DNA of 6,641 bases. Origin: a virus. Lineage: Duplodnaviria > Heunggongvirae > Uroviricota > Caudoviricetes. The position numbers and the translations under genes are program-made. The stretch lies in IMG/VR virus record IMGVR_UViG_2648501338_000005. One strand, given 5' to 3'. Each line of letters opens with the position of its first letter. Positions within the stretch are counted from its first letter, which is position 1. The notes under the pieces were generated by a model that had not been told where the DNA came from, ran no database searches, and was given only the letters and a program-made list of their open reading frames with translations. This document shows positions 1,159 through 1,976 of the stretch, in pieces.

Positions 1159-1227
1159 CGGTTTTCTCTGCTGGCGCAGCAGGTGCCAGTTGTTCAAGCT
1201 GGCGTGCGGCAATATTGTCTCTGATTT

Positions 1228-1258
1228 CTGTTGTCGTCAACAGGCAACGTGCTATCAT
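1228..1258 (+). promoter_or_regulatory. candidate sigma70 promoter of the TA operon with overlapping palindromic operator
   Basis: -35 TTGTCG (1231-1236), 16-bp spacer, -10 TATCAT (1253-1258), about 35 nt upstream of the antitoxin ATG. Inverted repeat CTGTTG-TCGT-CAACAG (1228-1243) overlaps the -35. Sequence-only prediction. Confidence 0.45.
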
Positions 1259-1293
1259 CGAATGGTGTTCTATCCTACTCCGTGAGGTTTACC

Positions 1294-1551
1294 ATGCGTA
1301 CAACCCAACAATTCAGCATTACATTAACTAACGAAATGGCTGACATGGTGCGCGCCCGTGTGGCTTCCGGTGCCTATGCTTCAGAAAGCGAGGTCATTCG
1401 TGAAGGGCTTCGCGCACTGAATGAGCGCGATAAAGCAATCGAAGCGTGGTTAACGCATTCAGCCGCCCCCTCTCTTGATTCTATCCGCGAAAACCCAAAC
1501 AACGGACGCTCCATTTCACAGGTTCGCGCCGCGATTCGATCCGGGAAGTAA
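1294..1551 (+). CDS. ParD/CopG-type ribbon-helix-helix antitoxin (85 aa)
   Basis: ATG at 1294 with GAGG 5 nt upstream; TAA at 1549-1551. N-terminal MRTTQQFSITLTNEMADMVRARVASGAYASESEVIREGLRALNERDKAIEAWL is typical of ParD-family RHH antitoxins. Followed 5 nt later by a RelE/ParE-like ORF. Confidence 0.85.
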   Translation: MRTTQQFSITLTNEMADMVRARVASGAYASESEVIREGLRALNERDKAIEAWLTHSAAPSLDSIRENPNNGRSISQVRAAIRSGK

Positions 1552-1556
1552 TCTGC

Positions 1557-1856
1557 ATGACATATGAAGTCATCATTACTCCTGAGGCCGAAGAACAAAT
1601 AATCAACCTGCACAGATATATAACGGAGAAAGCAGGGAACGTCATTGCTGACAATTTTGCCAATGCGCTTCTTGATTATCTTGATGGGTTTTCTACATTC
1701 CCGCATCGGGGCAATAAACGCGATGATATTCGCCAGGGGATGCGGGTAACTCATTTCCGCCACAGAACGATTATTGCTTTTGCCGTTGATGGCAGAAAAG
1801 TCTTTATTGTCGGTATCTATCATGGTGGGCAAAGTTATGAAACCGATTTCTTATAA
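1557..1856 (+). CDS. ParE/RelE-family toxin (99 aa)
   Basis: ATG at 1557, 5 nt after the antitoxin stop; TAA at 1854-1856. Size, position and sequence (MTYEVIITPEAEEQI...RTIIAFAVDGRKVFIVGIYHGGQSYETDF) fit the RelE/ParE toxin fold family. Confidence 0.85.
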   Translation: MTYEVIITPEAEEQIINLHRYITEKAGNVIADNFANALLDYLDGFSTFPHRGNKRDDIRQGMRVTHFRHRTIIAFAVDGRKVFIVGIYHGGQSYETDFL

Positions 1857-1939
1857 ACTTTTACCCACATCATTCCGGTGTTAGAATTAACCGTCCGCCC
1901 CCCCCTCTCTTACTGGCGGATTCGTAGGCTATATAAATC

Positions 1940-1976
1940 AAAGATCCCGGCTCATGTTTGTGTCGGGATCTTTTTT
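1940..1976. terminator. intrinsic terminator, possibly bidirectional
   Basis: Stem GATCCCG (1943-1949) / CGGGATC (1964-1970), followed by TTTTTT (1971-1976) and preceded by AAA. Lies between the end of parE (1856) and the end of the convergent minus-strand gene (2064). Confidence 0.6.

Follow-up and report, generated by a model that had tools for sequence, protein, structure and literature searches.

The question raised by this locus is how a toxin-antitoxin (TA) pair that is read against its phage neighbours is controlled, and whether its control is coupled to the expression of phage genes on the opposite strand. We analysed the pair within a window of 6,641 nucleotides, which is the whole stretch of DNA considered here. 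This window corresponds to the early-right/nin region of a lambdoid E. coli prophage and is 100% identical to strain C325. In the reading that we favour, with a probability of about 0.72, parD and parE are a two-gene type II operon carried as an accessory cassette of the lambdoid prophage, ParD would bind a site at 1263-1277, and the promoter-like element on the minus strand would be a relic. The features discussed below are collected in Table 1.

Table 1. Positions of genes and predicted or candidate elements around the parDE cassette, in window coordinates.
Feature	Position	Strand	Basis and remarks
DUF968 (ydfU-like) gene, 5' part	1-884	-	PGAP, 100% identical C325 record; extends beyond the window
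90-aa ORF, conserved, upstream of DUF968; left flank of the slot	886-1158	-	PGAP CDS in L001; phrog_1212, E=1e-35
Putative recombination joint, microhomology GCTGGCGTGCGGC	1198-1210		common to the slot flank and the first isrK nucleotides of Salmonella-type loci
Predicted isrK/C4-ant promoter remnant	1211-1240	-	-35 TTGACG (1240-1235), 18-bp spacer, -10 AATATT (1216-1211)
Palindrome CTGTTG-TCGT-CAACAG	1228-1243		read from the sequence; spans both -35 hexamers
Predicted parDE promoter	1231-1258	+	-35 TTGTCG (1231-1236), 16-bp spacer, extended -10 TGcTATCAT (1250-1258)
Best candidate ParD operator TGGTGTTCTATCCTA	1263-1277		directly after the extended -10, over the predicted transcription start
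parD, 85-aa ribbon-helix-helix (RHH) antitoxin	1294-1551	+	PF03693, TIGR02606, phrog_6494, PGAP WP_001260977.1
parE, 99-aa ParE-family toxin	1557-1856	+	PF05016, phrog_5232, PGAP WP_000220596.1
Spacer element, probably a bidirectional terminator between convergent units	1879-1976	+	fold z = -3.6
27-aa hydrophobic ORF, unannotated; right flank of the slot	1984-2067	-	read from the sequence

In the PGAP annotation of the identical C325 record, all other CDSs, from cro to the lysis genes, lie on the minus strand, in agreement with the first-pass annotation of this DNA, which had described the TA pair as the only plus-strand unit in a minus-strand operon. Downstream of the DUF968 gene the same record places rusA and then a DUF1133 Q-like gene. 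The ORF on the left flank of the cassette, which has 90 aa here and 92 aa in most prophages, is conserved across the Doc, HokD, K-12 and ParDE loci. The 27-aa ORF on the right overlaps a 114-aa ORF through ATGA, is conserved in the ParDE, Doc and HokD loci, and appears as 'hypothetical protein' in several phage records. A 43-aa ORF called by PGAP (1127-1258) was considered as the 'small ORF' of the first-pass annotation; it is probably spurious because its start falls within the TA -10, ahead of the minus-strand promoter. Of the two, it is the 90-aa ORF that is conserved.

The same arrangement was found in 324 of 5426 complete E. coli genomes, while 4616 E. coli genomes matched some part of a query covering 500-2450, nearly always the DUF968-side flank. 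In other prophages, phd-doc, hokD or rem-hokD-relBE lies between flanks that are common to all, and the K-12 Qin slot reads ydfU, 92-aa ORF, rem, hokD, relEB. These layouts agree with the earlier statements that relBE sits beside ydfU in Qin and that the position may be recurrent. The Qin relBE-hokD-rem, phd-doc and hokD cassettes share the slot, from the nin-side genes to the 92-aa ORF/DUF968 (ydfU), but encode unrelated toxin families and are mostly on the strand of the phage operon, whereas parDE is convergent. Presence or absence of the parDE cassette varies between conserved flanks among related prophages. The GC content is 0.45-0.52 across the cassette and 0.55 and 0.44 in the flanks; composition was rejected as a mark of foreign origin, since no sharp break was found. 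We conclude that parDE is an acquired opposite-strand accessory cassette in a recurrent slot beside the DUF968 gene. The description as a 'moron' holds because parD and parE are the sole plus-strand genes and occupy a slot that carries alternative cassettes elsewhere. In enterobacterial lambdoid prophages, the segment that separates the replication genes from DUF968-RusA-Q behaves as a TA-collecting hot spot.

The identity of the two genes was established by profile searches, in which detection lay far above chance level. ParD scored 32.1 bits against the ParD_antitoxin model PF03693 (Pfam cut-off 21) and 53.8 bits against TIGR02606 (NCBIfam cut-off 46.2), and ParE scored 40.4 bits against the ParE_toxin model PF05016 (Pfam cut-off 23). 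The PHROGs matches of ParD (phrog_6494, E=2e-56) and ParE (phrog_5232, E=2e-42) are both filed as 'moron' toxin/antitoxin. Against the PDB, the ParD profile matched the ParD antitoxins 7YCV, 3KXE, 7B22 and 8C24. The ParE family profile matched ParE toxins only at E<0.01, with 6x0a as the best at 1e-7, and RelE, HigB and YoeB were absent from the matches at this threshold. The antitoxin gene comes first on the same strand, preceded by GAGG at 1284-1287, and the 5-nt gap before parE contains a Shine-Dalgarno-like GGAAG. The family scores, PHROGs and PDB matches and gene order uphold the ParD/ParE assignment of the first-pass annotation; judged from sequence, the pair is a type II ParD/ParE TA system, and its toxin falls in the ParE branch of the RelE/ParE superfamily. 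A ParE-like ORF is kept in about 65 of 80 distant loci. The PADLOC defence models gave zero matches for ParD, ParE or their neighbours, and in the literature on Stx phages that we searched the pair was not found, the only matches being false ones to words such as 'parental'. Both genes are already named in PGAP/RefSeq and PHROGs, and the pair is an ordinary prophage TA cassette; as a TA module it adds little, prophage-borne TA cassettes being well known.

Upstream of parD, a promoter scan gave a plus-strand site that matches 9/12 positions and has the TG extension. The hexamer count, 5 in the scan versus 2.2 +/- 1.6 expected, is weak evidence taken alone. The pattern TGnTAnnnT is kept in 8/9 enterobacterial lineages, L098 having ACTAAAAT instead, and in other genera the spacer is 4 bp longer and the -35 is TCGTCA. 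Both this promoter and its minus-strand counterpart are conserved in other genera in which synonymous sites are saturated. From its own extended -10, with a predicted start near 1265, parDE would be transcribed against the phage early-right operon.

The best candidate operator, TGGTGTTCTATCCTA, is a degenerate local copy (10/14) of a family-wide palindrome, TAGGATTnAATCCTA, and is the sole match to it in the window. Among the distant parD loci, 79/80 carry TAGGATTnAATCCTA at 11/14 positions or better (that is, at least 11), 30-50 nt from the ATG; the controls (n=367) mostly reached 6-8/14, with a maximum of 10 in 2/367. The homologous ATAGTGTTCnATCCTAC is retained at the corresponding position in 9/9 enterobacterial lineages. 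The left half reads TGGTGTT here versus TAGGATT in the family palindrome, and affinity for ParD at 1263-1277 may be low because the copy is degenerate. In the wider family the palindrome mostly includes the -10 itself (TAGGAT), so part of its conservation may be owed to the promoter and not to a bound repressor. An experimental precedent is the V. cholerae ParDE2 complex, whose footprint on its own promoter runs from -21 to +13 (PMC10776004); this footprint covers the -10 to +1 region, and the predicted operator here overlaps the same region. ParD, alone or with ParE, would most likely repress the operon through this predicted site. The motif TAGGATTnAATCCTA was not found as an operator in the literature that we searched, where the motif matches were chloroplast sequences only. 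With so strikingly conserved a candidate operator, present upstream of this ParD family in many phyla, autoregulation can be tested directly at hundreds of parDE loci.

The scan also gave a minus-strand promoter-like site with 9/12 positions matched and a predicted start at about 1204-1205, heading to the 90-aa ORF and DUF968. Five further parDE lineages, and two isrK loci that lack parDE, carry homologous elements of the form TTGACG-17/18-TATATT or TATAGT. The spacing was checked in four lineages (L006, L086, L090 and L092), and in each of them the -10 precedes the 5' end of IsrK, as given by Rfam, by exactly 7 nt. Rfam also places isrK, C4 and a1b1 directly after the homologous promoter in L006, L086, L090, L092, L102, L103 and L107. 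The minus-strand -35/-10 is homologous to the isrK/C4-ant promoter in the ArgO145, Salmonella, Yersinia, Erwinia and Izhakiella loci; in Stx phage ArgO145 and in Salmonella, Yersinia and Erwinia prophages, this promoter stands back-to-back with parDE. Positions 1211-2412 of the window are 96.5% identical to ArgO145. Elsewhere, the homologous promoter would drive the IsrK/C4 small RNAs and the antirepressor gene, in operons of which Gifsy-1 isrK-orf45-anrP and P1 immI c4-icd-ant are the named kin. In comparison with these operons, the window retains the promoter plus no more than about 8-13 nt of isrK, and lacks the IsrK and C4 RNA genes and the antirepressor gene; an Rfam search of the entire window (E<=1) gave two chance-level matches, none in 1200-2000 and none to isrK. 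In other lineages, the GGTTCGAATCC-like sequence that precedes parD was considered as a tRNA remnant or att site; this was rejected, as ARAGORN found none and Rfam identified isrK, C4 and a1b1.

The ends of homology locate the likely junction. Homology starts at 1198 versus the Salmonella parDE-isrK loci and at 1211 versus ArgO145 and all phage records, and homology to the Doc and HokD loci stops at about 1208. A microhomology-mediated join within GCTGGCGTGCGGC would have removed isrK. The minus-strand element is best read as the isrK/C4-ant promoter, which would have travelled with parDE, been truncated at about +1 and been joined to the flank. The first-pass annotation had proposed a divergent promoter here for the small ORF and DUF968: a conserved element overlapping the TA -35 does exist, but it would have originated as the isrK promoter and not for those genes. 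By homology, the remnant now faces the 90-aa ORF, DUF968, rusA and Q genes with a -10 that is probably weakened, AATATT versus TATATT in isrK-linked copies.

It is conceivable that this remnant is active and co-opted, so that lysogens would transcribe the 90-aa ORF, DUF968, rusA and the Q-like gene independently of the repressor, although we regard this as unlikely. Its -35 is intact (5/6), its -10 retains the critical A2 and T6, the join leaves the promoter whole to almost exactly +1, 46 nt of leader preceding the ATG at 1158, and the arrangement is stable in the 324 genomes. Moreover, the homologous PisrK was shown to be active in Salmonella Gifsy-1 (PMC4825925). However, the first base of the -10 has become A, whereas all isrK-linked copies keep the T, and constitutive transcription toward a late-gene antiterminator should, from lambda biology, harm the lysogen.

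The perfect palindrome described by the first-pass annotation was found at 1228-1243, overlapping the TA -35 (TTGTCG) and the minus-strand TTGACG. That annotation further took it as the antitoxin operator, at which ParD would control both the TA promoter and a minus-strand promoter for phage genes, and this model appears improbable to us. Inverted repeats with perfect 6-bp arms (spacer 0-8) number 18 in the window versus 14.8 +/- 4.5 in shuffles, and a shuffled intergenic stretch has a 15% chance of at least one, indicating a chance-level frequency. The arms pair 6/6 in this lineage only. Pairing is 5/6 in Izhakiella and in the three nearest lineages, with ArgO145 and Salmonella at this level, and drops to 4/6, 4/6, 3/6 and 2/6 in others, the element being absent in L096; no compensatory arm changes were found among the lineages compared. 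The palindrome is also missing from the 80 distant parD loci except Izhakiella, despite a nearly invariant DNA-reading N-terminus of ParD (MRTTQQFSITL). In favour of the model, the palindrome core GTCGTCAAC is kept in 8/9 enterobacterial lineages, including L094 and L098 without isrK, but this conservation is accounted for by the isrK -35, since parDE-less loci have it as well. The dyad is not conserved and the candidate operator at 1263-1277 is far better conserved, so the palindrome is a poor candidate for the antitoxin operator. Since GTCGTCAAC is retained in the isrK-less parDE lineages, the core may serve parDE itself, as a -35 or as a second site. Other inverted repeats listed in 1000-2200 were imperfect and inside coding sequence, and were treated as chance.

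With overlapping -35 hexamers, RNA polymerases on the two strands probably compete, which could couple the two units indirectly without binding at the palindrome. Because the TA and isrK/C4-antirepressor -35 hexamers overlap, ParD occupancy, through antitoxin stability under stress, could also set the firing of the back-to-back opposite promoter, a proposal that we consider a long shot. If true, TA status would be tied to antirepressor production and prophage induction in Stx phages such as ArgO145 and in Salmonella prophages, and to the DUF968-RusA-Q module in the derived arrangement of the window. In Stx-converting and Salmonella prophages the cassette is repeatedly placed back-to-back with the IsrK/C4-antirepressor switch, which suggests a testable link between TA and induction circuitry.

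That parDE is instead a decaying or non-functional remnant without toxin activity, in effect an orphan regulator, is improbable: among close relatives, the O157 Stx2a phages PA2, PA8 and VT2phi_272 retain parD only, with homology stopping at window 1570, and parE is split or absent in Yersinia copies, but here both ORFs are intact, aligned ParE keeps 10/10 of the residues invariant in the family, conservation of the pair is 97-100% over hundreds of genomes, and dN versus four other genera (0.16-0.35) is far under the saturated dS. The substitution pattern indicates that parD and parE are under purifying selection. For the favoured two-gene type II operon, loss of the labile ParD would free ParE to poison a host target, which by family analogy could be DNA gyrase; this target is an analogy because even the nearest ParE of solved structure is matched only distantly (profile E=1e-7). 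The outcome might be prophage addiction or abortive-infection defence.

The chromosomal RHH systems, Caulobacter ParD1/ParE1 (3KXE) and Mesorhizobium ParDE3 (5CEG, 6X0A), have the same order of RHH antitoxin followed by ParE and the same family models, as do V. cholerae ParDE2 (7R5A) and M. tuberculosis ParDE1 (8C24). The match to the chromosomal systems is distant in sequence (single-sequence E ~1e-3; profile 1e-7), and the present pair differs from them in its candidate operator, a TAGGATTnAATCCTA dyad rather than GGTA repeats, and in being borne by a lambdoid prophage. PaaR2-PaaA2-ParE2 of the E. coli O157:H7 prophage CP-933P, reportedly described by Hallez et al. in 2010 as having three components, is likewise said to place a ParE-family toxin on a lambdoid prophage of pathogenic E. 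coli. By description it is set apart by a non-RHH antitoxin and a separate regulator, whereas the pair here is a classical two-gene RHH system. ParE(SO)-CopA(SO) of the Shewanella prophage CP4So is reported to have an autoregulating RHH (CopG-like) antitoxin and a demonstrated role in keeping the prophage (PMC8706911). It too is a prophage-borne ParE with an RHH antitoxin, differing in host and phage type; a prophage-maintenance role might be supposed for parDE here.

Downstream of parE, the spacer element is composed of an extended -10-like TGTTAGAAT (1879-1887), a C-rich-loop hairpin, an AU-rich linker and a strong hairpin (1940-1973) with T6 at 1971-1976. Transcription of parDE probably ends at this hairpin and T6 (1940-1976). 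The element adjoins parE in the ArgO145 and Salmonella types, is absent in more distant parDE lineages, and is found in a Phd/Doc-cassette locus without parDE; on these grounds it was rejected as a terminator belonging to parDE. The earlier picture of a moron with its own promoter and terminator is therefore kept for the acquired cassette and the conserved predicted promoter, but probably not for a terminator integral to parDE. Rfam has no family for 1879-1976, and the element is possibly a small RNA gene.

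The plus-strand genes parD and parE constitute a bona fide, conserved ParD/ParE pair. ParD scored 32.1 against PF03693 (curated cut-off 21) and 53.8 against TIGR02606 (46.2), and ParE scored 40.4 against PF05016 (23). The PGAP annotation calls parD a type II ParD-family antitoxin (WP_001260977.1) and parE a RelE/ParE-family toxin (WP_000220596.1), and PHROGs places them in the 'moron' families 6494 and 5232, respectively. Among solved structures, a profile of the toxin subfamily (22 toxins) matched ParE toxins only (6X0A at 1e-7, then 5CEG, 6XRW, 8C24 and 7YCS), and the antitoxin profile matched RHH ParD proteins. 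The ParD family comprised 2648 clusters at E<=1e-5 from Alpha-, Beta- and Gammaproteobacteria and Acidobacteria, with an almost invariant N-terminus (MRTTQQFSITL), and a ParE-like ORF lay directly 3' of parD in about 65 of 80 distant loci. Comparison of the window's parDE with the Salmonella, Erwinia, Enterobacter and Izhakiella copies gave a dN of 0.16-0.35 with saturated dS, indicating purifying selection. By analogy, ParE is expected to be toxic with gyrase as its target. The first-pass annotation had described the features accurately and recognised the module correctly, but the module is ordinary and already annotated.

Features of the window discussed in the text
Feature	Position	Strand	Remarks
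parD	1294-1551	+	GAGG at 1284-1287 ahead of start
parE	1557-1856	+	5 nt past parD
Motif copy TGGTGTTCTATCCTA	1263-1277		10/14 positions; over predicted start site; sole match in window
43-aa ORF (WP_001342258.1)	1127-1258	-	begins inside parDE -10; overlaps 90-aa ORF
27-aa hydrophobic ORF	1984-2067	-	ATGA overlap with stop of upstream 114-aa ORF
Hairpin + T6	1940-1976		10 nt past stop of 27-aa ORF; 84 nt past parE
181-aa ORF	2405-2950	-	TTG start

The toxin gene is not always kept. Many O157 Stx2a and Stx1a phages carry parD (86% identical) beside isrK/C4/ant and have lost parE (loci L086-L089; phage records PA2, PA8, VT2phi_272 and Stx2a_F765). Their homology to the window stops at 1570, and about 50 nt past parD begins an unrelated ORF of 93 aa, rich in Cys. 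The parD of these phages has the appearance of an orphan antitoxin or regulator gene. The Yersinia loci L090/L091 and L098/L099 are a further instance of toxin loss with the antitoxin kept: parD and the motifs upstream of it are intact, but parE is either missing or split into ORFs of 42 and 57 aa.

We then lined up the upstream regions of 80 loci with ParD homologues, one genome per species. TAGGATTnAATCCTA was matched at 11 or more of 14 positions in 79 of the 80, starting 30-50 nt before the ATG, and at 13 or 14 positions in 61 of those 79; randomly drawn 120-nt segments from these loci mostly matched at 6-8 positions, and just 2 of 367 trials reached 10. The palindrome GTAGGATTnAATCCTAC upstream of these 79 of the 80 homologues (loci L006-L085; Proteobacteria, Acidobacteria and others) usually includes the -10, and TAGGAT also serves as -10 in most of the 80 loci. 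These results demonstrate a family-wide dyad at ParD promoters; a full-text literature search for GTAGGATTnAATCCTAC did not find it. The enterobacterial variant, ATAGTGTTCnATCCTAC, lies 4 nt past an extended -10 (TGnTAnnnT). The placing of the window's copy resembles that of the -21 to +13 footprint left by the V. cholerae ParD2-ParE2 complex (PMC10776004). We therefore propose 1263-1277 as the candidate operator, at which ParD, with or without ParE, would repress its own promoter. Once ParD is lost, ParE would poison gyrase, and the pair may serve prophage retention or defence.

The first-pass annotation had proposed as ParD operator the palindrome CTGTTG-TCGT-CAACAG, which is present at 1228-1243. 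However, perfect inverted repeats with 6-bp arms and spacers of 0-8 numbered 18 in the window against 14.8 +/- 4.5 in dinucleotide shuffles, and 15% of shuffles of the intergenic stretch contained at least one, so this palindrome by itself is uninformative. Its arms match at 6/6 positions in the window type only, at 5/6 in the ArgO145/L086 type, the Salmonella type and Izhakiella, at 4/6 in Enterobacter and Yersinia L098, at 3/6 in Yersinia L090 and at 2/6 in Erwinia; it is absent from Salmonella L096 and, Izhakiella apart, from all 80 distant parD loci. No compensatory arm changes were found across the compared lineages, which argues against an operator here. Its conserved part is the core GTCGTCAAC.

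On the minus strand this core reads GTTGACGAC, a sequence that includes a -35. Loci of Izhakiella, E. coli L086/ArgO145, Yersinia, Erwinia and Salmonella have TATATT or TATAGT 17-18 bp past it, and directly downstream lie IsrK, the a1/b1 targets and the C4 antisense RNA (Rfam), then an ORF6N/AntA antirepressor gene. In the four lineages checked (L006, L086, L090, L092), exactly 7 nt separate the -10 from the IsrK 5' end. This pair of -35 and -10 is also present at isrK loci without parDE (Stx2a_WGPS6, phage 2851). In Gifsy-1, a promoter at this position drives isrK-orf45-anrP (PMC4825925). The sequence comparison thus shows the minus-strand promoter to be homologous to PisrK: the proposed divergent promoter is a genuine, conserved element, but one that is part of the isrK/C4-ant operon. 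The scan returned TTGACG-18-AATATT in the window, where Rfam found no isrK. All isrK-linked copies carry TATATT or TATAGT in place of AATATT, and the remnant is probably weak. A start at about 1204-1205 would leave a 46-nt leader to the 90-aa ORF (ATG at 1158).

How isrK was lost is suggested by the junction. Over window 1211-2412, identity to Stx phage ArgO145 is 96.5%, and in that phage parDE and isrK stand back-to-back. Matches in the phage database all begin at 1211, and alignment to Salmonella-type loci begins at 1198. GCTGGCGTGCGGC (1198-1210) is similar to the opening nucleotides of isrK as well as to the slot flank of the Doc and HokD loci, suggesting a deletion or join mediated by microhomology.

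The plus-strand promoter proposed earlier was returned by the scan as TTGTCG-16-TATCAT with TG upstream. Its -35 (1231-1236) overlaps the opposite one (1235-1240), and polymerase binding at the two is therefore probably mutually exclusive. Coupling of TA autoregulation to the opposite promoter survives in this indirect form only and is speculative; in ArgO145-like phages, such exclusion could link TA state to antirepressor expression. The distance from GTCGTCAAC to the extended -10 is 4 bp shorter in E. coli and Salmonella than in Yersinia, Erwinia, Enterobacter and Izhakiella. With this shorter spacing the best -35 is TTGTCG (16 bp) instead of TCGTCA (17 bp). The 43-aa 'hypothetical protein' of PGAP, starting in the TA -10 and without family matches, is likely a false call.

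The window is 100% identical to part of the E. coli C325 chromosome, where it lies inside an annotated lambdoid prophage. Its minus-strand order is cI (divergent), cro, ydaT, O-like gene, dnaC-like gene, DUF1627, DUF977, several small ORFs, ead/Ea22 and the 114-aa ORF, then plus-strand parD and parE, then the 90-aa ORF, DUF968, rusA, DUF1133 Q-like gene, methylase, tRNAs and lysis genes. Between cro and lysis, parDE is the sole plus-strand unit, as proposed. Of 5426 complete E. coli genomes, 4616 matched window 500-2450, nearly always on the DUF968-side flank; only 324 carried the whole arrangement, and homology in the others ended at 1175-1208. Between common flanks the slot holds phd-doc (L002), hokD (L003) or rem-hokD-relE-relB (K-12 Qin, L004), demonstrating that it is polymorphic; this bears out the moron reading and, in substance, the first-pass placing of relBE beside DUF968 in Qin. 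No break in base composition was found across cassette and flanks. The right-hand flank begins at about 1983 with the 27-aa ORF, which is kept in ParDE, Doc, HokD and Salmonella loci behind differing upstream genes (114-aa ORF, DUF551, DUF977), is not annotated in C325 and is a 'hypothetical protein' in some phages. In Salmonella relatives, higBA, hok/sok, vapBC, a Fic/Doc gene and parDE occur together in the slot region, which is therefore a TA-collecting stretch. These modules stand side by side between the replication genes and DUF968/rusA in the Salmonella prophages L096/L097 and L103-L107, one arrangement adding a type I restriction HsdR N-terminal fragment.

The terminator hairpin noted earlier is present and, from its distances to the 27-aa ORF and parE, is read as a bidirectional terminator between convergent units. 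The 1879-1982 piece containing it lies 3' of parE in the window type, ArgO145 and the Salmonella type, is absent from more distant parDE lineages, and also adjoins a phd-doc cassette without parDE; in nearly all of 308 genomes with the piece it adjoins parE. It carries a conserved extended -10-like TGTTAGAAT (TGTTAAAAT in Doc-type L002). Plus-strand 1879-1976 comprises a hairpin with a C/U-rich loop, an AU-rich linker and the terminator hairpin with U6; its fold (z = -3.6) is typical of small RNA, and no Rfam family was found for it. This element is possibly a small RNA gene of about 83 nt, or may be a bidirectional terminator only. Further along, the 181-aa ORF, where PGAP annotates a short frameshifted pseudogene only, matched phrog_9263 at 60-230 of 230 (E=1e-123) and is probably a phage gene truncated at its N-terminus.
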